Positions 1-41,368 are shown, counted from the stretch's first letter. The stretch: 41,368 nt of DNA from a virus (IMGVR_UViG_2660238423_000035); one strand, 5' to 3'. The notes: generated from the sequence alone by a model not told the origin. Translations and numbers: made by a program.

Positions 1-555
1 TCATTTATCTCCCACCGGAAACCTCTTATACAAAGTCGATATGCCAACATCATAGATGATCGCTACCTTCAGGCGAGGAACTCCTGATGCAATTAATCGC
101 CCGGCCTGCGCCCATTGTTCTGGTGTAAGTTTGGGACGACGTCCACCAATTCGTCCCTGTGCGCGAGCAGCCTCCAGTCCAGCTTTTGTTCGTTCAACAA
201 TCAGTTCTCGTTCCATTTCAGCCAGGGCCCCCATCACATGAAAGAAAAAACGCCCCATCGGTGTGCTGGTATCAATAGCATCCGTCAGGCTGCGAAAATT
301 AACGCCACGTTCGCGCAACTCCTCAACCAGAATGACCAGATGCCGCATACTACGCCCCAGCCGATCCAGCTTCCAGACAACCAGAGTGTCACCTGCCGAT
401 AATGTCCTGAGCAGTTTTTTCAGCCCCGGCCTTTCGGACTTTGTACCGCTTATCTTGTCTTCAAAAATCAGCTCGCATCCTGCACAGTTCAGCGCATTAC
501 GTTGTAGATCTGTGTTCTGGTCATTTGTTGACACACGTACATAGCCAATAAGCAT
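1..555 (-). CDS. Serine DNA invertase, Gin/Pin/Hin/Cin family (tail-fibre host-range switch)
   Basis: Translation from internal Met MLIGYVRVSTNDQNTDLQRNAL... (184 aa) is near-identical in pattern to Gin/Pin (catalytic Ser in YVRVST, C-terminal HTH); ORF track extends 12 codons upstream to 591. Confidence 0.9.
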   Translation of the reverse strand: MLIGYVRVSTNDQNTDLQRNALNCAGCELIFEDKISGTKSERPGLKKLLRTLSAGDTLVVWKLDRLGRSMRHLVILVEELRERGVNFRSLTDAIDTSTPMGRFFFHVMGALAEMERELIVERTKAGLEAARAQGRIGGRRPKLTPEQWAQAGRLIASGVPRLKVAIIYDVGISTLYKRFPVGDK

Positions 556-581
556 GGTAGATCTCCCTGACAAAAGCAGGA

Positions 582-1133
582 ATGATGCCATTTGCTCGTT
601 ATTTCTGCATTTTCATAAACGTTGGTTTAGGAGAAGGCTCAGCATTGCCTGTTGGCGTACCTGTTCCGTGGCCCTCAGCCACTCCGCCAACAGGCTGGCT
701 AAAATGCAACGGAGCAGCTTTTTCTGCTGAAGAATACCCGGAACTGGCAAAGGCTTACCCGACAAATAAATTGCCTGATTTACGTGGTGAGTTTATTCGT
801 GGCTGGGATGACGGACGTGGTATGGATACGGGGAGGGCAATATTATCAGCTCAGGGCGATGCCATACGTAATATCTATGGTGAGTTCAGAACTGTAAACA
901 CTGAAAATTATTCAATATGGGAAACAGTAGGCTCGTTTAAGGGGGCCATAGTGCCATTGAGTCCCTCTACAAACAATAGTTATTTCTCCTTAACCAGAAG
1001 TATGGTGACAGAAAGAGCAGACGGCGCTGTTTACCCAAAAGTGATTGGCCTTGATGCTTCAAGAATTGTTCCAACTGCAAACGAAAACCGTCCTCGTAAC
1101 ATTGCCTTTAATTATATCGTGAGGGCTGCCTGA
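582..1133 (+). CDS. Alternative tail-fibre C-terminal (receptor-binding) domain, currently in silent orientation with no constant N-terminus attached
   Basis: PVGVPVPWPSATPPTGWLKCNGAAFSAEEYPELAKAYP ... NIAFNYIVRAA matches the conserved C-terminal collar/tip motifs of enterobacterial side tail fibres; reading frame runs through the crossover site. Confidence 0.75.
   Translation: MMPFARYFCIFINVGLGEGSALPVGVPVPWPSATPPTGWLKCNGAAFSAEEYPELAKAYPTNKLPDLRGEFIRGWDDGRGMDTGRAILSAQGDAIRNIYGEFRTVNTENYSIWETVGSFKGAIVPLSPSTNNSYFSLTRSMVTERADGAVYPKVIGLDASRIVPTANENRPRNIAFNYIVRAA
610..635. other. Invertase crossover site (gix/pix-like), right end of invertible segment
   Basis: 26-bp sequence TTTTCATAAACG-TT-GGTTTAGGAGAA, imperfect inverted half-sites around a central dinucleotide as in gix/hix sites; inverted partner at 2221-2246. 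Confidence 0.7.
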
Positions 1134-1738
1134 TGAATAAAGCGGTATTAAATAACGAACTCATTGCTATAAAAGCGGGAGACATTACCATTTATAATTA
1201 TGATGGTGAAACGCGGGAATATATTTCCACATCAACTGAATATCTTGCTGTGGGTGTCGGTATCCCGGCATGTTCCTGTTTAGATGCTCCTGGCTCATAT
1301 AAAGCTGGTTATGCAATCTGCCGTTCTGCAGATTTTAACTCATGGGAATATGTGCCAGACCATCGCGGTGAAGTTGTCTATAACACCGAAACGGGAGAAT
1401 CAAAAGAAATCACAGCTCCGGGTGATTACCCTGAAAATACAACCACTATCGTCCCGTTAACGCCATACGATAAATGGGATGGTGAGAAATGGGTGACAGA
1501 TACTGAGGCACAGCATAATGCCGCAGTAGACGCGGCAGAAGCACAGCGCCAGTCACTGATTGATGCAGCAATGGCTTCCATCAGTCTGATTCAGCTGAAA
1601 TTACAGGCCAGACGTAAACTGACGCAGGCAGAAACAACCCGACTAAACGCTGTGCTGGATTACATTGACGCGGTGATGGCAACGGATACCAGCACCGCGC
1701 CGGTGGTTATCTGGCCAGTTCCTCCTGAGACGGTTTAA
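1133..1738 (+). CDS. Tail-fibre assembly protein (Tfa/Mu U-like), partner of the alternative fibre tip
   Basis: 201 aa; conserved Tfa C-terminus ...AEAQRQSLIDAAMASISLIQLKLQ...[17 protein letters not shown]; start overlaps stop of upstream fibre segment. Confidence 0.8.
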   Translation: MNKAVLNNELIAIKAGDITIYNYDGETREYISTSTEYLAVGVGIPACSCLDAPGSYKAGYAICRSADFNSWEYVPDHRGEVVYNTETGESKEITAPGDYPENTTTIVPLTPYDKWDGEKWVTDTEAQHNAAVDAAEAQRQSLIDAAMASISLIQLKLQARRKLTQAETTRLNAVLDYIDAVMATDTSTAPVVIWPVPPETV

Positions 1739-1928
1739 TCTCAATCAGAATGGGTTCGCCCTTCTCGTTAACAGATATTTCCATTCCTTCAGGGATTTCA
1801 GATGCAGTAAAAAACCAGTTATCTTCTGGTAATTCAACAGCCCCGGTCACGTCATGAAGACCGGGGATTACTTCAGTCAAAGTAACAGGATTAAACAGGC
1901 GCACAATAAACCCTCCAGGAAAAAGCAT
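1707..1928 (-). CDS. Small protein downstream of the currently expressed fibre tip; possible short tail-fibre assembly/chaperone protein
   Basis: 73-aa ORF inside the invertible segment, 3'-convergent and overlapping the alternative tfa; position equivalent to tfa in e14/Mu arrangements; weak resemblance to Tfa N-terminal region. Confidence 0.4.
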
Positions 1929-2571
1929 TTATTGATGGTGTTCCGTCGTACATCTGGCAGCGGACATAAAAACCGGTATTAGTGACCTGGTCATCCACGA
2001 TCATTGAAACGTGAACGTTATTAGATGTGCCCCCATAATCCGTTCCTATTCTTTCCGCTATGCTGATAAAACGTGAAAGCTTAGGTAGCGCAATAGGATA
2101 AACGACTTTAGCCAGTCCATTATTATTAGAACCACCCGTCCCAAAGACTTCTATTGCACCATCTGACCAGCGTATCCATGCACCATTGGCATTAGCTCCT
2201 CGCTGAATGACATATCTGGCTTCTCCCAAACCAAGGTTTTCGAGAGCCATTTTCACCGTGCCATCCGATTTGATATCGCCAAACGGATTCTTGCGGCTCA
2301 GGTATTCAACAGCAAACCCCGATCCCAGCAATTCAACAAAACCGGGCAGATCACCATTATCAAGCACATCCCGTTGCGTTTTATCACTTACAAACTGGGC
2401 CAGAGCTGCAGCAATAAAGCTGGCCTGCCGAATAACCTTATTGACTTGCGCACTGGAGGCTTTCCCTGCTGTAAATCCGGATAAAAGCGCAGGCAACGCT
2501 TCCCATTCCTCCTGCGACATAACATTGGCATTTTTACCCGTTGCGAATGCTTTAAAGTCATTTTTTGCCAT
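1891..2571 (-). CDS. Tail-fibre protein, current orientation (constant N-terminus plus 107-aa variable tip)
   Basis: Start MAKNDFKAF... coupled to upstream stop (TGATG overlap); crossover site lies within the gene at 2221-2246 (…[12 protein letters not shown]|ARYV…). Confidence 0.75.
2221..2246. other. Invertase crossover site (gix/pix-like), left end of invertible segment, inside tail-fibre gene
   Basis: TTCTCCCAAACC-AA-GGTTTTCGAGAG, inverted relative to the 610-635 site; encodes ...ENLGLGE... on the minus strand, while the 610-635 site encodes ...NVGLGE... on the plus strand. Confidence 0.7.
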
Positions 2572-3251
2572 CAGAGTAATACTCCCCATGCCCCTACATC
2601 AAAACCACTGATAAATTCGTTATCCATATCAAAACCAAAAAATTTTGAACCTTCCGATGGGGTTTCCACCGAAGGCGTTTCAATGCCACCCGCCCACACC
2701 CCAGCGGCTTTTACTGTGAGATATCCCTGTTTAATTGCAGCAATTAACTCACGCGATACATCTGAAATATCAGTATCAGGAAAGACCCAGACCGATATCG
2801 TCATGTCCTGGTTATCGACTATCTGCATTCGCAGCCCGGATCCTGCTGTTGCCGCGTCAAGAATTGCCGGAAGCGAATCATTCCGTCCGTCCCAGTTATT
2901 AATCGCAATCTTCGCTTTAAGGATGACACGATAAGTTTCATCGCTGAGGTACATGTATCCGGAATCAGGATCGTATGGTCCCTGCCATACACCCTGATCA
3001 TATCCAAGCCCGTCGGTATCCCAGCTGAAATAAACACCTGAGATAGGCTGGCTGACAACACGGCTACGTCCGATCCACAATCCCAGAATGTCAAGTTGCA
3101 CACCAACCGCAGAGTCAATATCAAATGCAGTAATCAGCCCTCTGGTGGCCGCCGCAACATCAATAAGCGGCCGGGTCATCAGATCAACATGTGCAAGAAA
3201 TTTAGGTTTGGTGGCGTGGTAGTTCGTGATTAGTTCGGTGTATTTGCTCAT
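2571..3251 (-). CDS. Tail protein, Mu gp48/YmfQ (DUF2313)-like
   Basis: 226 aa, located between baseplate J-like gene and tail fibre, as in Mu and e14. Confidence 0.65.
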
Positions 3252-32929: not shown

Positions 32930-33571
32930 ATGTCACAGCCCGTATTAACTAATCACCTTAAAACTCAAATCATCAATAACGCACTTGAGAAAGCGGGTAT
33001 CCCCAAACGTAAATCAGCACTACGAGCTGCTCGTGTTGAATGGGCCGAACGTGTTCGGCTTGCAGCTATCGGGGGCGTAGAGAAAGAAGCTGAAATATTA
33101 AAAAATATAAAAAAAATAGAAACACTGGTATCAAAAGTCCCCGAAGCATTAAAAAACAATAGTTCTTTAATTCGAAAAGATTGCTGCATATATCTCAATC
33201 TGGCTGGAGCCAGAGCAAACATTTATTTCAATGGCAACTACAGAGGTTATGAATCAGGAGCCCCCGAGCATATTAATAAAATAACACCTGCAGAATTTAC
33301 TCTACTTGGCGAAGATCCTCTGGTAACGGAGTTTTATAGCTTTGATGCTCTCTACACACAAATTAAAAGTGATGAAACCGAAATCATACAGAACGTCAGC
33401 GCGGCTCTAAATAAAGTTCGGACAGTAAAACAATTACTGGATGTATGGCCCGAAGCTAAAGAACTGCTTCCAACAGACGCACCGCCAGTCCCTTTAGCAC
33501 CAGCAGTACATCGAGAGACATTAAATGAAATGATAGGCCTTCCTACCAATACAGTGTCTGATACTCAATAA
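32930..33571 (+). CDS. Hypothetical protein (about 213 aa), AT-rich insert
   Basis: Start chosen at ATG preceded by GAGG RBS (ORF track opens at 32900); visibly AT-rich; no motif recognised. Confidence 0.55.
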   Translation: MSQPVLTNHLKTQIINNALEKAGIPKRKSALRAARVEWAERVRLAAIGGVEKEAEILKNIKKIETLVSKVPEALKNNSSLIRKDCCIYLNLAGARANIYFNGNYRGYESGAPEHINKITPAEFTLLGEDPLVTEFYSFDALYTQIKSDETEIIQNVSAALNKVRTVKQLLDVWPEAKELLPTDAPPVPLAPAVHRETLNEMIGLPTNTVSDTQ

Positions 33572-34254
33572 CAAGGGGGATGCTTATTATATGATTTTGA
33601 ACGTTTTACAATCTCGTTAAGAGGCGTGAAATCAAAATCTCTGAATAACACATCAGGATACTTCGCTCTTGCTTTATCCAGCAAACCAGTTAAAGTATTT
33701 TTTGTGTTACCCAACATTGTATTAACCGCCACTACATGTCTAATTTCTGGAGGTTTATCTATACCACCAGAAATTGCTTCATTAAGAACCGACGCCAGTG
33801 GGGTTTGTCCCTTACTTGTTGAATCCCACAGCGTCATTAACAGACGAGCTGCGTCTATAAATAGCTTTTTGTCAGCATTTGGCTTGACAGTAATACCAGA
33901 ACTACCTGAGCCAGAACCGGAACGTTCTATTGCTGCACTGGTATCCGATTTCATAGGATTAAATAACGGCAGCTCTGTACAACCGATACGCCGAATGAAA
34001 TCCTTTGCAACATCTCTACCACAGAAAAAAGCCCCTGTACAATTTTCATCAGAGCGTTTTTTAAATGAAAAACAATAGTACTGATCGGTTAACGGATAAC
34101 CGGAATAACTGGTTTTAGTTTGTCCAGTAATAAGTTTCAGGTGTGCAACAGGCTGAATAATAAAATCCCGAACTATCGCATCTTTTATGTCGTTACCACG
34201 GTGACAATAATATTCAGGTAATCCATTAGGCTGTCTCTTATTACCCACAGTCAT
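33565..34254 (-). CDS. Hypothetical Cys/His-rich protein (229 aa), AT-rich insert on opposite strand
   Basis: Convergent with and overlapping the 3' end of the preceding gene by 7 nt; N-terminal Cys/His-rich region, GSGSGSSG linker, helical C-terminal domain. Confidence 0.55.
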   Translation of the reverse strand: MTVGNKRQPNGLPEYYCHRGNDIKDAIVRDFIIQPVAHLKLITGQTKTSYSGYPLTDQYYCFSFKKRSDENCTGAFFCGRDVAKDFIRRIGCTELPLFNPMKSDTSAAIERSGSGSGSSGITVKPNADKKLFIDAARLLMTLWDSTSKGQTPLASVLNEAISGGIDKPPEIRHVVAVNTMLGNTKNTLTGLLDKARAKYPDVLFRDFDFTPLNEIVKRSKSYNKHPPCY

Positions 34255-36384: not shown

Positions 36385-36600
36385 ATGTCATTTAAATACC
36401 GGGACAATCCACTTTATTACAGGGCTGCAAGGGAAGCTTTGCGACTTGAACAATCCGGCGAATATGACCGGGCAGCGGAGGTCTGGGCAAAAGCCAACCG
36501 CGAATCACATCACGAACTGAATCAGGAATGGAGTGAACGCAGATCTGATTTTTGCCTGATGCAGAATATGCGTGAAAAGCGTAAGGCGGTCGAAGAATGA
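36385..36600 (+). CDS. Hypothetical small protein (71 aa)
   Basis: ORF coupled to neighbours. Confidence 0.4.
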   Translation: MSFKYRDNPLYYRAAREALRLEQSGEYDRAAEVWAKANRESHHELNQEWSERRSDFCLMQNMREKRKAVEE

Positions 36601-36896
36601 TCGTTTACGTTGCCGGGCCAATGAGCGGTTACGAGCAATTTAACCGCCCGGCCTTTCATTCCGCAGCAAAGAGGCTAACGGACAAGGGATATGTTGTGCT
36701 TAACCCCGCAACTTTACCCAATAGTTTGACACAGGCTCAGTACATGGACATCTGCCTCGCAATGCTTCGCTGTGCCGATACGATTTATATGCTCAAAGAG
36801 TGGGAGTACTCTGCCGGCGCACGTGCAGAAAACGCGTTGGCAGAGAAACTGGAATTGAATGTGCTTTTTGAAGAGTGGGATTCAGATGTCCTATGA
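36597..36896 (+). CDS. DUF4406 / nucleoside 2-deoxyribosyltransferase-like protein
   Basis: 99 aa; N-terminal MIVYVAGPMSG… characteristic of this fold family. Confidence 0.55.
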   Translation: MIVYVAGPMSGYEQFNRPAFHSAAKRLTDKGYVVLNPATLPNSLTQAQYMDICLAMLRCADTIYMLKEWEYSAGARAENALAEKLELNVLFEEWDSDVL

Positions 36897-37155
36897 ACGT
36901 GAAAACCTAATCGAGAAGCATCTCGTCGCCGAAGTGAAAAAGGCTGGTGGGGTCGCCTTTAAGTTCATATCACCTGGTCGCCGCTCGGTACCAGATCGCA
37001 TTGTTCTGCTACCCGGCGGCCGTCTCGTTTTCGTTGAATGTAAATCTCCCGGCAAGCCACCACGGCCTGACCAGTTGCGCGAGCATGAACGTCTGCGAAA
37101 GCTAGGCTTTACCGTGGTAGTACTGGATAGCAAAAATTTAGAGGGGATATTGTGA
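36886..37155 (+). CDS. VRR-NUC domain nuclease
   Basis: 89 aa from MSYEREN…; …LLPGGRLVFVECKSPGKP…QLREHERLRKLGF… matches VRR-NUC pattern; ORF track opens earlier at 36859. Confidence 0.7.
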   Translation: MSYERENLIEKHLVAEVKKAGGVAFKFISPGRRSVPDRIVLLPGGRLVFVECKSPGKPPRPDQLREHERLRKLGFTVVVLDSKNLEGIL

Positions 37156-37284
37156 GACAATCATTCTGAGCGATTTTTCTTGAGCTTAGAAGCTTTTAAA
37201 AAACATACTTTTAGTTGTTGTGTTTCTTTTATGCTTACAGGAATTAATTTCCCCTCAATTCCTTCGACACTCATAAATTCAGAG

Positions 37285-37887
37285 CTATTTTTTTTTACAG
37301 TTCCCCAAGACAAATTTTCCGTTATAGCTTTCGATAATATAAGCATCATATTTTTTAGAATAAAAAAGAGGCTCATCTGATAAGTATGCCCATGCCCACC
37401 CAAGGACTGAAGGAAGCATTGCTATAGATATAAAAAGCATAACCCCATGAGTTTTGTTTTTTATTCTAAATTCATTCCTAATAAAAACAGATACTGCCCT
37501 GACACTGATAGGGCTAATAAATCCCAACAGTATTGCTTGGGTAGCCACATCCCTTATGGATTTTTCATAAAGGTATGAGCTACCGCCATATAAATACATT
37601 GTCCAGTATGAAAGCAAAGAGGCCAAAATGAAGAAAAATAAATACACCCACCATGGAATATTCTTCTCTTCAGTATCAATATGCAGCAAAGCGACTAAGG
37701 TGCACAAAAGTCCTAATGCAATAACAGAAAATTTAACTATTTCCTCAATCCCAATAGAAATAAAACTTACAGGGAATCCATAAAATGAGCTGTACCCTTT
37801 GTAAAAAGAAAAAGCCATAAAATAAAGGGCGGCCAAGAGAACCGTTGTAATTGATAAATCTTTTACATTCATGATGTTCAAGAGCAC
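37285..37887 (-). CDS. Multi-pass inner-membrane protein (200 aa), AT-rich opposite-strand insert
   Basis: Five to six hydrophobic helices; strongly AT-rich; only about 23 bp between its start and the divergent helicase start. Confidence 0.6.
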   Translation of the reverse strand: MLLNIMNVKDLSITTVLLAALYFMAFSFYKGYSSFYGFPVSFISIGIEEIVKFSVIALGLLCTLVALLHIDTEEKNIPWWVYLFFFILASLLSYWTMYLYGGSSYLYEKSIRDVATQAILLGFISPISVRAVSVFIRNEFRIKNKTHGVMLFISIAMLPSVLGWAWAYLSDEPLFYSKKYDAYIIESYNGKFVLGNCKKK

Positions 37888-37910
37888 CTTTCTAATCAGG
37901 GATTTTCTTC

Positions 37911-39302
37911 ATGATAACTTTTAAACCACGTCCCTACCAAGATCTCATCATCAATCATCAAATCGAGCCCCTGCGCGGCAACATCTGGGCAGGGATGGGG
38001 ATGGGTAAAACCGTAGCGACACTCACCACGCTGGAAGATCTTTTCATGGCTGGAGCAGAAACACGCCCCGCGCTGGTCCTCGCGCCGCTACGCGTTGCAG
38101 CAAGCACTTGGCCTGATGAAGCTGTTAAATGGGGGCATCTGCGTAATATTGAGGTACAGCCGATCATCGGTAACGCCAAAGCGCGCTCTACAGCGCTGGC
38201 GAACAGCAACGCGAGCGTGTTCACAATCAACTACGATAACCTTGTCTGGCTGGTTGAAGAATTGGGAGAACGATGGCCGTTCGGTACTGTCATTCCAGAT
38301 GAAAGCACCCGGCTAAAATCCTTCCGGCTGCGAGGTGGTGGTAAGCGCGCGGCGGCGCTGGGCAAAGTGGCGCACAAGTATGTCCGGCGCTGGATAAATC
38401 TCACCGGTACGCCAGCACCGAACGGCCTGGTAGATTTGTGGGGACAATCGTGGTTTGTGGACCAGGGGCAACGTCTCGGGCGCACTTACGGCGCGTTTAC
38501 CTCACGCTGGTTCAAATCGATACAGTTTCCGGGGCAGAGCTGGACCAAACTGGAGCCTTTTGCTCACTCACAGGGTGAAATACAGCGAGCGTTAGCCGAT
38601 GTGACCCTCTCGCTGGATGCGGCCGACTGGTTCGATATCAAAGACCCCATCCATAACGTAATCCGCGTGGATATGCCGCCGAAGGCCCGTCAGCAGTATC
38701 GTGAAATGGAAAAGGAAATGTACCTCGAGCTGAATGGCGAAGGCATCGAAGCACCGAACGCCGCGGCAAAGACACTGAAGTGTCTGCAAATCGCCAGCGG
38801 CGCAGTATACACAGATGACACCGGAAGTTGGTCAGAACTGCATGACACCAAACTACAGGCGCTGGACAGCATACTGACCGAAGCAGCTGGCGCACCTGTG
38901 CTGGTTGCTTATCACTGGAAACACGATCTTGAACGCTTGCTTAAAGCATTTCCTCGCGGTCGTCACCTCGACCAGGATCCACAGACACTACGTGACTGGA
39001 ATTCCGGAAAGATTCCTGTTCTCTTTGCACACCCAGCCAGCGCGGGCCACGGTCTGAACATGCAGGACGGCGGAAATATACTGGTATTTTTCTCACACTG
39101 GTGGGACCTGGAGCAATATCAGCAAATTATTGAACGTATCGGCCCAACCAGACAGATACAGGCCGGACACAATCGTCCGGTATTTATTCACCACATTATT
39201 GCTGCCGACACTATGGACGAAATGGTGATGGAGCGGCGCAACTCAAAACGAACAGTGCAGGACATCCTGCTCGATGCCATGAAAAAGAGAGGTATAGCAT
39301 GA
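37911..39302 (+). CDS. SNF2-family helicase (superfamily 2 ATPase)
   Basis: 463 aa; Walker A …GMGMGKTV…, DExx box …VIPDESTRLK…, C-terminal helicase domain. Confidence 0.75.
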   Translation: MITFKPRPYQDLIINHQIEPLRGNIWAGMGMGKTVATLTTLEDLFMAGAETRPALVLAPLRVAASTWPDEAVKWGHLRNIEVQPIIGNAKARSTALANSNASVFTINYDNLVWLVEELGERWPFGTVIPDESTRLKSFRLRGGGKRAAALGKVAHKYVRRWINLTGTPAPNGLVDLWGQSWFVDQGQRLGRTYGAFTSRWFKSIQFPGQSWTKLEPFAHSQGEIQRALADVTLSLDAADWFDIKDPIHNVIRVDMPPKARQQYREMEKEMYLELNGEGIEAPNAAAKTLKCLQIASGAVYTDDTGSWSELHDTKLQALDSILTEAAGAPVLVAYHWKHDLERLLKAFPRGRHLDQDPQTLRDWNSGKIPVLFAHPASAGHGLNMQDGGNILVFFSHWWDLEQYQQIIERIGPTRQIQAGHNRPVFIHHIIAADTMDEMVMERRNSKRTVQDILLDAMKKRGIA

Positions 39303-39499
39303 GCGAGAAACCCGACGATTTACTCACCCCGGATGAAGTATGCCAAAAGTTAGGTATTACACAGAAAACGCTATGTGAGTGGAATATTAAGCATCGTCAT
39401 CGGGCTATCCTGGCACCAATTCGTTTCAGTGCAAAAGTAGTTCGTTATGAGCGCCGAAATGTCGACGCTTTTATTCAAAAATGTCGCAGCCAGTATTAA
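39299..39499 (+). CDS. Excisionase / AlpA-like DNA-binding protein
   Basis: 66 aa, small HTH protein (…LTPDEVCQKLGITQKTLCEW…) adjacent to and convergent with integrase. Confidence 0.6.
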   Translation: MSEKPDDLLTPDEVCQKLGITQKTLCEWNIKHRHRAILAPIRFSAKVVRYERRNVDAFIQKCRSQY

Positions 39500-40899
39500 C
39501 CTCGCCGCCGTAGCAATGCCACCTGCGCAAGTATGCTCCGCTCGTGAGCCTCGAAAGCTTCGCGCTTCAACGCAATCTCTTCCTGTAAAATCTCATCAGA
39601 AAAGTCGTAATGTTCTGCCATCGGGTCATCTGACTTGCTGGAGTGGTGAAGGCAAAGGAGGCTGATTTCCCTTCGGTCTGAGCGGGAATAGCCTCTTTCC
39701 TTCATCAAGGCAATAACATTGCTCTTAAGGAATTTACGGCACATCGTATTAAATGCACCGTCTTTCCCTTTAACAGTCCCATCATGTTTTATTCCTTTTA
39801 CAGCCCCGTCCGGGCTGTATGTTTTCACCAGCTTATCCAGTGATCGTTTTGAAAATGGCTGCATTGGATCACGTGGCTGCAAAAATACATAATCCCTGTT
39901 GCACTCAGGAACTGAATCACGCCAGGCTTTCTGCTCGTCGATAATCCGCCGGATCTCAGGCGTTATCGGCAGGCGGAAAGCCTTTTGTGTTTTCATAGCC
40001 CCTCGCATGCCGATAACCCCTTCCGGATAAACAATTTCACCAGCCTCCTCGTGAACGTAGTCCCAGCGCAGGTTATGGACATTAATCGGACGAACACCAG
40101 TGATGATCATGAAGCGAACAGCATTCTTCTGGTGTACAGAGGTGCAGGCAGCAACATTGAGCCAGAGTCGGGCGATTGATTCAATATCGGTAAAAAGCCG
40201 TGTGGGGGTAGGTTTCTGTACGCGGGAGGAAACATAATCATCTGGCAGACTGGCGGCAACATTGCGGCCGTTGCAAAGAGTAGGTGCGCAGAACTTCCAG
40301 AACCGACGGAGCTCGGCAAACAACTCCAGGGCGTTATTGTTCGAGCGAGTGGCGATCCACTCGTCCAGCACTTCCACCAGCCGACTGTATGTTACGTCGC
40401 TGAACACCTCGCGCTCGCCGAACGTTGATTTAATCCGGTCGATACGCACCCCGTAGGTTGTGAAACTGTCCGGGCTCAGCTTCTGACGGGCTACTTTGGC
40501 TTTGAGGTCATCCCGGTACATTTCCAGCGCTGCATGTACGGACTCTGCCCGCAGTCCACCGTCAGCCATACCTAGTGCTTTTTCGCGCGCCAGCTGGATA
40601 GCGAGCTCCGGCCACTCGCCGAGCTTTTTACCCTTGAGGCCCATCTTTTTTGGAAACTCGGCGTAAAATGTAACCTTACCGGCTTTGCTGAAATCGATAC
40701 GGAGATAGTTCTCTTTTTCGTATTTGGAACGGCGAGCCACGCCGGAAGCAGCGAGGATGATTTTGGCGGCAGCAACACAGATTTTCATGTGTGCGCTGGT
40801 ATAGGGGGGTTTACAGGCGTCCCATTTTTCAGATGCGGCTAAAACATCGTCATTATTGGGGCTATCCGGATTATGTGTTACAGTGCGCGGCATTCTCAA
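39496..40899 (-). CDS. Tyrosine site-specific integrase
   Basis: 467-aa ORF (true start may be internal); C-terminal catalytic-domain pattern with conserved Arg (…ITGVRP…), His and Tyr (…AEHYD…) candidates; terminal position next to host gene. Confidence 0.7.
   Translation of the reverse strand: MRMPRTVTHNPDSPNNDDVLAASEKWDACKPPYTSAHMKICVAAAKIILAASGVARRSKYEKENYLRIDFSKAGKVTFYAEFPKKMGLKGKKLGEWPELAIQLAREKALGMADGGLRAESVHAALEMYRDDLKAKVARQKLSPDSFTTYGVRIDRIKSTFGEREVFSDVTYSRLVEVLDEWIATRSNNNALELFAELRRFWKFCAPTLCNGRNVAASLPDDYVSSRVQKPTPTRLFTDIESIARLWLNVAACTSVHQKNAVRFMIITGVRPINVHNLRWDYVHEEAGEIVYPEGVIGMRGAMKTQKAFRLPITPEIRRIIDEQKAWRDSVPECNRDYVFLQPRDPMQPFSKRSLDKLVKTYSPDGAVKGIKHDGTVKGKDGAFNTMCRKFLKSNVIALMKERGYSRSDRREISLLCLHHSSKSDDPMAEHYDFSDEILQEEIALKREAFEAHERSILAQVALLRRRG

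Positions 40900-41098: not shown

Positions 41099-41368
<270 letters not shown>

Follow-up and report, generated by a model that had tools for sequence, protein, structure and literature searches.

A membrane protein gene as exchangeable cargo in the replication operon of an Escherichia coli prophage, with a possible role in superinfection exclusion and a frameshifted allele

We analyzed a 41,368-nucleotide (nt) stretch of viral DNA (IMGVR_UViG_2660238423_000035), referred to here as the window; all coordinates are those of the whole window, with its first letter as 1. Over the 3-kb stretch that was compared, the window is 100% identical to a prophage of Escherichia coli strain 97-3250, a temperate myovirus integrated next to yfhL in an O26-type genome. 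We find that the segment at 37156-37910 is one of several alternative cargo cassettes that occupy a fixed slot in the replication operon, between the gene for a VRR-NUC nuclease and the gene for an SNF2-type helicase (Table 1). In the window, the cassette carries a gene for a predicted multi-pass membrane protein on the strand opposite to the operon, and this allele is truncated by a frameshift in a run of adenines. We tentatively favor a function of the intact protein in superinfection exclusion at the inner membrane, based on its genomic context and predicted architecture.

The cassette is exchanged as a unit among closely related prophages. In 5,426 complete E. coli genomes, 161 prophages have the flanking replication genes, and the membrane-gene cassette is present in 22 of them, always on the chromosome and in a single copy. 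Homology to siblings with a different load stops at 37134-37156 and restarts at 37917-37935, that is, at the gene borders. The loci inspected had at least seven different slot fillings. One sibling (locus L002, 1251-2183) has a gene for a 310-amino-acid (aa) protein that matches BstA (PADLOC, E=1.4e-115) and that is encoded backwards, like the membrane gene. Other siblings contain a three-gene set with a PDC-S42 candidate (E=4.7e-40), an Arc/Arc/hypothetical/Rha set, a C5 cytosine methyltransferase with a small open reading frame (ORF), a 265-aa hypothetical protein, or a 305-aa protein with a weak match to a TIR effector. BstA is an experimentally established abortive-infection protein of prophages (PMC8585504). 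No terminal or flanking repeats were found at the cassette borders, and a transposon-like insertion was rejected for lack of terminal repeats there. Exchange of cargo by recombination in the conserved flanks would be the simplest explanation. A structured RNA in the cassette was also considered and rejected, as there was no credible match in Rfam.

The cassette has two features expected of a moron or hotspot insert, a variable presence at a fixed position and a base composition unlike that of the flanking phage genes. Its G+C content (GC) is 0.343, compared to 0.493 for the whole window and 0.50-0.54 for the genes on either side, and it is the 755-nt stretch with the lowest GC in the window (0.17th percentile). 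At third codon positions, the GC (GC3) is 0.33 in the membrane gene and 0.52-0.57 in the neighboring genes. Relatives of the gene are likewise AT-rich (0.37-0.39, with flanks at 0.48-0.59). A preliminary description of this DNA had proposed a minus-strand ORF between the nuclease and helicase genes that is strikingly AT-rich compared to its neighbors and that is an accessory insert, not a part of the replication module. The ORF list and domain matches, the base composition, and the unrelated cargo in most siblings agree with all three points, and the coordinates given in that description coincide with the homology breaks. Conservation of the gene in all relatives within the replication module, which that description had named as evidence to the contrary, is not what we see, with 22 of 161 prophages carrying the gene.

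In its patchy presence, its deviant composition and the alternative cargo at a fixed site between conserved genes, the slot resembles known morons and hotspots, such as HK97 gp15, the tin/old/fun genes of P2, and those of P4. A distant member of the membrane-protein family is itself found at a position of this kind, in a P2-like prophage between gpS and gpV. The slot differs from these examples in that it is within a polA/VRR-NUC/SNF2 replication operon and in a different type of phage, and we found no description of it as a hotspot.

A gene that is found within a replication operon and at a conserved distance of 38 nt from the helicase gene might be expected to serve the phage itself, as a membrane anchor for replication, in lysis, or as a regulator in the replication module. 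We consider such an intrinsic function extremely unlikely. The gene is absent from 139 of the 161 related E. coli prophages, which have unrelated cargo instead, and relatives are found at unrelated positions in P2-like and other prophages. In addition, the gene is antisense to the operon, and the lysis genes of the prophage are located elsewhere.

The minus-strand ORF in the interval (37285..37887) encodes 200 aa when counted from a GTG at 37887. We take the ATG at 37872 as the start of the gene, not the GTG, because all relatives begin with the sequence M/V-N-x-K-D-L; one relative has an in-frame stop codon immediately upstream. RefSeq calls the same ATG. From this start to the TAG at 37285-37287, the gene in the window encodes 195 aa. 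The 200-aa protein of the preliminary description thus exists as an ORF, and the product is the shorter protein, from a truncated allele of a family of 234-237 aa. Similarly, the distance of about 23 bp that had been given between this gene and the divergent helicase start needs to be corrected to 38 nt. The same 38-nt spacer is found in relatives from Salmonella, the BFo2 symbiont and metagenomes that are 46-67% identical, and the ribosome-binding sites of both genes must fit within it. At the other end, the full-length membrane gene and the VRR-NUC gene are convergent, and their stop codons are 5 nt apart.

A search of 5.8 billion proteins showed that relatives of the membrane protein are nearly all 234-237 aa. 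The difference in length is due to a homopolymer near the 3' end of the gene, which is nine adenines (A9) in the window and eight (A8) in E. coli O55:H7 CB9615 and in MLI108K3. Apart from this single base, the cassette of MLI108K3 has the same sequence as the window. The protein from the window ends in ...GNCKKK* at residue 195, whereas intact alleles continue as ...GNCKKNSSEF..., for 41 more residues in all. The DNA for these residues is still present downstream in another frame, and it is unchanged, encoding a sequence identical to the C-terminus of intact alleles. The conserved residues E216, T217, K221, C223, F224 and L225 are lost with this tail. Because the remnant is still identical to the intact allele, the A9 lesion looks recent.

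Both states of the tract are common. Records of the exact 195-aa truncated protein come from 434 contigs, compared to 491 with the intact allele of that haplotype and 250 with the intact O55 allele. A second truncated allele, on a separate haplotype (strain M-17), is found on 77 contigs, and further A9 copies are present in strain A34, together with a second frameshift, and in an IMG/VR locus (L020). A9 therefore occurs on at least three haplotypes, and A8 and A9 are both found on one shared haplotype. The occurrence of the exact truncated proteins on 434 and 77 contigs led us to reject a sequencing artifact. A conserved device for phase variation was rejected as well. Recurrent change in tract length among close relatives, as expected of a phase-variable locus, is seen here, but conservation of the tract across the family is not, and the tract is only A5-A6 in distant relatives (Enterobacter, Salmonella and metagenomes). 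For this reason, we see the run as an accident, prone to mutation, in the E. coli/Salmonella allele rather than as a device that the family has conserved.

The truncation removes two strands, a helix and the second invariant cysteine (C223) of the C-terminal domain, and as modeled, this domain cannot fold in the allele from the window. Because of these losses, we think that this allele is probably inactive or weakened. It could even be cargo in decay, that is, a pseudogene in the making with its A-run under relaxed selection and a product without any role, an explanation that is compatible with a functional family of intact proteins. The presence of A9 on three or more haplotypes, one copy with a second frameshift, the location of invariant residues in the lost tail, and the absence of a conserved run in distant relatives are all consistent with decay. 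The argument applies only to the local allele, however, since purifying selection on the family overall is strong; the lesion is recent, given the identical remnant, and the slippage-prone A9 makes some full-length product possible (PMC1088944). On balance, we regard decay as somewhat unlikely.

Nine adenines is the length at which bacterial RNA polymerase starts to slip appreciably (PMC1088944), and by analogy with other genes, slippage might restore a little full-length product. For example, tssM1 of Citrobacter rodentium is also interrupted at a poly-A run just before the region for a C-terminal periplasmic domain (a predicted one in our case), and transcriptional slippage at that run yields two length variants of the membrane protein (PMC4256274). 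The two cases differ in that the run is A11 in tssM1 and A9 here, where a -1 or +2 change would be needed to restore the frame. They also differ in that the run described here is not conserved among homologues and that intact A8 alleles exist on the same haplotype.

The membrane gene belongs to a small and divergent family. When 1.84 billion cluster representatives were searched exhaustively with a profile, no more than 37 clusters matched at E<=0.001, and full-length members are 228-265 aa. The ratio of non-synonymous to synonymous substitution rates (dN/dS) across relatives is 0.08-0.25 when the entire gene is counted and 0.06-0.13 for the part that encodes the C-terminal domain. Judged by these ratios, the membrane gene is real and not a chance ORF, and its family is under strong purifying selection. 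Curated thresholds in Pfam and NCBIfam were reached neither by the protein from the window (Pfam) nor by a full-length member (P0001), and 33 members gave only scattered single matches below threshold. A PHROGs family without an assigned function, phrog_35408, matches 23 of the 33 distant members over their whole length (best E=1.6e-45); the truncated protein from the window has no PHROG match at E<=0.1, and its link to phrog_35408 is through the family profile alone. The family profile had no match below E=0.02 among PDB sequences and no locus in the GTDB species representatives, and the whole structural model found nothing below E=0.3 among the BFVD viral folds. We found no literature on the protein accessions or on the related phages vB_EcoM-689R2, -611R5 and -606R2. 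The preliminary description had been unable to assign the protein to a known family, and the searches of Pfam, PHROGs, PADLOC and NCBIfam lead to the same result.

The predicted architecture of the full-length protein is unusual for its combination of a membrane part and a small folded domain. A model made by AlphaFold2 on the family alignment (predicted local distance difference test score [pLDDT] 82.8, predicted template-modeling score [pTM] 0.82) has transmembrane helices at residues 8-31, 42-63, 74-95, 106-132 and 140-164, followed by a beta-rich domain (170-211) and a terminal helix (214-235). A Kyte-Doolittle scan recovers the same five hydrophobic helices; of the five to six that had been suggested from the window, five are thus supported and a sixth is not. 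In a separate model of the C-terminal 74 residues (pLDDT 85.8), an SH3-like barrel of five strands is followed by a helix. Among 33 divergent members, the only invariant residues are C192, in a strand of the barrel, and C223, in the helix. Nearly invariant Y, G, G-x-P and I residues form a motif directly past helix 1, where the loop reads F-x-G-[FY]-P-x-x-F-I. In the alignment of the 33 members, none of the His, Asp, Glu, Ser or Lys residues is conserved in a way that would point to an enzyme.

The distribution of positive charges points to an orientation in the membrane. The mean number of Lys plus Arg residues in 29 members is 2.07 at the N-terminus, 0.83 in loop 1, 1.90 in loop 2, 1.62 in loop 3 and 3.28 in loop 4. 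By the positive-inside rule, the N-terminus is predicted to be cytoplasmic, which would place loops 1 and 3 and the C-terminal domain in the periplasm. This orientation would expose the most conserved parts of the protein, the loop after helix 1 and the C-terminal domain (about 70 residues), to the periplasm. Because the invariant cysteine pair is in a domain predicted to be periplasmic, C192 and C223 probably form a disulfide. A remote relative from a metagenome (P0068, 264 aa; locus L034, 6001-6795) shares with the family the N-terminal helix and the motif, here G-Y-x-x-Y-F-G-x-P-x-E-F-I, and does not have the cysteine pair. It has a weak precomputed match to Pfam PF27470, 'TfpB', a name that we could not trace to a relevant paper. 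A 1106-aa ORF follows its gene, and an N6/N4 methyltransferase is encoded nearby.

The membrane gene is not a recent insertion but an old resident of the slot, because versions that are 46-67% identical share its position and spacer in related prophages. All relatives that are at least 46% identical and have readable surroundings are in the same slot, usually with the 38-nt spacer. They come from Salmonella, an enterobacterial symbiont of thrips, E. albertii-like contigs and metagenomic enterobacteria, and some of the prophages are integrated at proA instead of yfhL. Over these distances, the membrane protein has changed far more than its neighbor, with 46-67% identity among related phages compared to 93-96% for the adjacent helicase. 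In an E. coli-Salmonella pair, the values of synonymous (pS) and non-synonymous (pN) divergence are 0.57 and 0.175 for the membrane gene and 0.51 and 0.034 for the helicase gene. Synonymous divergence is thus similar in the two genes and non-synonymous divergence is five times higher in the membrane gene. We infer an unusually fast change of the protein under purifying selection, a pattern that is common for proteins facing other phages or the environment.

A decayed prophage suggests that the host benefits from keeping the membrane gene. In a remnant in Enterobacter cloacae (L008, 5515-8001, and L009; near proBA), the membrane gene is intact and encodes 236 aa. In the same remnant, the SNF2 helicase gene is reduced to frameshifted fragments, the polymerase to a piece of 80 residues, and the integrase gene is truncated. 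A benefit to the host is suggested because the gene is intact while the prophage around it has decayed.

Distant members of the family are found in other settings. One of them (P0033; L027, 6001-6708) is on the late-gene strand of a P2-like prophage, between the genes for the tail-completion protein gpS and the spike gpV; we take this gap to be the place where phage P2 carries the non-essential orf30. Another distant member adjoins the integrase gene of a different prophage, and a third is in a non-phage island with a YafO toxin-antitoxin pair. With members at accessory positions of P2-like and lambdoid prophages and in an island, the family moves on its own, as a single accessory gene, between phages of unrelated types.

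How might such a protein act? We postulate that the gene, which points in the direction opposite to the lytic replication operon, would be transcribed from the repressed prophage, in the lysogen. The surface of the inner-membrane protein that faces the periplasm could then interfere with the genome-delivery apparatus of incoming phages. A role in binding or blocking is favored over an enzymatic one because there is no conserved residue of a catalytic type. The resulting effect would be superinfection exclusion of the kind known for SieA of phage P22. SieA is also a small multi-pass protein of the inner membrane (a predicted location in our case) encoded by a prophage, and sieA and the P22 virion genes that flank it, 16 and 9, are on opposite strands. 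From the inner membrane of the lysogen, SieA blocks DNA delivery by related phages on its own, an action that has been demonstrated for SieA and that is proposed here. The SieA family, like the family described here, is split into very divergent sequence types (PMC10883804). In contrast to the membrane protein, SieA is 164 aa and has no C-terminal two-cysteine beta-barrel domain, and its gene is beside the genes for ejection proteins, not in a replication operon.

Several observations weigh against superinfection exclusion. In E. coli, H-NS frequently silences genes that are rich in AT, and we found no clear promoter or terminator for the membrane gene, which would be a further feature of a moron. 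The only candidate promoter is a sigma-70-like site in the right place on the minus strand (37940..37911); the number of such sites is at the level expected by chance, and the spacing is not conserved in relatives. The topology and the disulfide are predictions only. Comparison of a profile of the 33 sequences with P22 SieA using hhalign gave a probability of 0.2% (E=0.32), and values were similarly low for P22 SieB (0.18%), lambda RexB (0.15%) and HK97 gp15 (0.09%), with no homology to any of them. The protein from the window has no match at E<=1 to the 5027 defense-protein models of PADLOC-DB v2.0.0. By these comparisons, the membrane protein is not a member of the SieA, SieB, RexB, HK97 gp15 or PADLOC families. 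A tblastn search of 50,697 deposited phage genomes with P0001 and P0033 found no relative. The company of defense genes is a weak argument in this slot, which houses a methyltransferase and regulators as well. Lastly, truncated alleles are common, so that loss of the intact protein is tolerated.

In sibling E. coli prophages, this slot also houses BstA, an abortive-infection protein with self-immunity. Like the membrane gene, the gene for BstA is encoded backwards and is a single-gene accessory of the prophage, in its case a defense. Unlike the membrane protein, BstA is soluble; it associates with DNA, has a KilA-N-like domain (PMC8585504) and has no relationship in sequence to the membrane protein. 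Its presence nonetheless raises the question of whether the membrane protein could be an effector of abortive infection, that is, a latent membrane-damaging protein (a pore or a depolarizing channel, like RexB in principle) with a periplasmic domain that senses phage, after which the cell is killed or arrested. A multi-pass membrane protein with a conserved, predicted extracytoplasmic domain, present as a single-gene module in every context examined, would fit such a function. There is, however, no homology to RexB or to any effector in PADLOC, and we saw no gene for a partner sensor. In addition, a large clone (434 contigs) stably carries the truncated protein with its five helices, which speaks against an intrinsic toxicity of the membrane part. 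For these reasons, we think that an abortive-infection effector is unlikely.

Lysogenic conversion of the envelope of some other kind would also be consistent with a benefit to the host. The protein could be an orphan immunity protein against a membrane-acting bacteriocin or against a toxin of contact-dependent inhibition (CDI) or of a type VI secretion system (T6SS), or it could change a surface receptor or a property of the envelope that has nothing to do with phages. Immunity proteins for pore-forming colicins are typically small multi-pass proteins of the inner membrane. The retention of the gene by the host in the decayed prophage and the distant member beside the YafO toxin-antitoxin pair in a non-phage island are in keeping with this idea. 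An adjacent toxin gene was not found in any context seen, most contexts are accessory slots of prophages, and the protein does not have the conserved catalytic residues of an envelope-modifying enzyme. Overall, immunity or envelope conversion seems improbable to us.

Returning to superinfection exclusion, a broader proposal combines several of the ideas above. The 236-aa protein could be the founder of a new family of single-gene, inner-membrane, anti-phage proteins in which the conserved periplasmic loop and the two-cysteine, possibly disulfide-linked, SH3-like domain recognize the genome-delivery apparatus; the polA/VRR-NUC/SNF2 operon could be a new defense hotspot; and A8/A9 could be a heritable on/off switch, with slippage mixing both products. 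That all of these hold together is possible but doubtful.

The early operon of the prophage contains genes for DUF2800, DUF2815, Nmad5, a family-A DNA polymerase, an ANR/PerC-like regulator, DUF4406, VRR-NUC, the SNF2 helicase and an AlpA-like protein, and it is followed by the integrase gene on the opposite strand. The features at the slot are listed in Table 1.

Table 1. Features at and around the cargo slot, in window coordinates.
Feature	Coordinates	Strand	Basis
VRR-NUC nuclease gene, left border of the slot	36886..37155	+	Pfam VRR_NUC E=4.6e-4; phrog_93 endonuclease E=1.4e-31; RefSeq annotation
Accessory cassette (moron slot) between the VRR-NUC and SNF2 helicase genes	37156..37910		Homology breaks, low GC
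Out-of-frame remnant encoding the last 41 residues, NSSEFMSVEGIEGKLIPVSIKETQQLKVCFLKASKLKKNRSE, plus stop	37161..37284	-	Tail of the -1 frame ORF 37161..37403
Truncated coding sequence, 195 aa (five transmembrane helices and first half of the C-terminal domain)	37285..37872	-	ORF list; RefSeq WP_001101050.1; start conserved
A9 homopolymer (T9 on the plus strand), site of the +1 frameshift	37288..37296	-	Alignment with the CB9615, MLI108K3, M-17 and A34 copies
Divergent spacer, 38 nt, between the membrane gene and the helicase start	37873..37910		Equal spacing in relatives
SNF2-type helicase gene, right border of the slot	37911..39302	+	Pfam SNF2-rel_dom E=1.4e-11; phrog_62 DNA helicase E=1.1e-156

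Other parts of the early region also vary among these prophages. The stretch between the polymerase and VRR-NUC genes (36385-36896 in the window, with the ANR/PerC-like and DUF4406 genes) is variable among siblings and contains, in L005 and L028-L031, a TIR-domain protein (PADLOC PDC-S35, E=1.2e-108), an 'ATP-binding protein' with HATPase_c on the opposite strand, YfbU plus a hypothetical protein, or DUF7446. A second AT-rich, backwards gene (33565-34254, minus strand, 229 aa, GC3 0.28) is between the Nmad5 and DNA polymerase genes. It has no match in Pfam or PHROGs, and its match to IetA in PADLOC is only at the level of chance (E=0.032). In related prophages, unrelated opposite-strand ORFs of 98, 173 or 211 aa are found at this position, which looks like a second cargo slot.

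Two further differences concern the polymerase and integrase genes. In the Salmonella prophage (L016, 10744-11226) and that of the thrips symbiont (L032, 9446-9871), a gene for an HNH-type endonuclease (NUMOD4/HNH_3) is beside the DNA polymerase gene, and the polymerase is longer (700-708 aa) with only weak matches to DNA_pol_A. The HNH gene, which is absent from the window, suggests the insertion of a homing endonuclease. The integrase is 467 aa in the prophage beside yfhL (39496-40899 and 41108-41368 in the window) and 390 aa in those beside proA (L010, L016). The replication genes are nearly identical between relatives at the two sites. Because near-identical replication genes are paired with different integrases and sites, the integration module has therefore been exchanged independently of the replication module.

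Based on our results, we conclude that the membrane gene represents a protein family that has not been described, in a prophage hotspot that apparently has not been described either, and that both are of a familiar general type. In the O26 lineage of Shiga toxin-producing E. coli (STEC), the gene is frameshifted, and the 195-aa 'hypothetical protein' of automated annotation is probably not the functional product. If it is true that the intact protein excludes phages or aborts their infection, then it would be a new family among the few defenses that act at the membrane, with the unusual architecture of five helices and a predicted periplasmic two-cysteine barrel. With BstA in the slot between the VRR-NUC and helicase genes, and with TIR-domain and PDC candidates in or next to it, a census of the slot would be a cheap route to defense genes. 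We suspect that both this family and this slot are worth following in the search for such genes.

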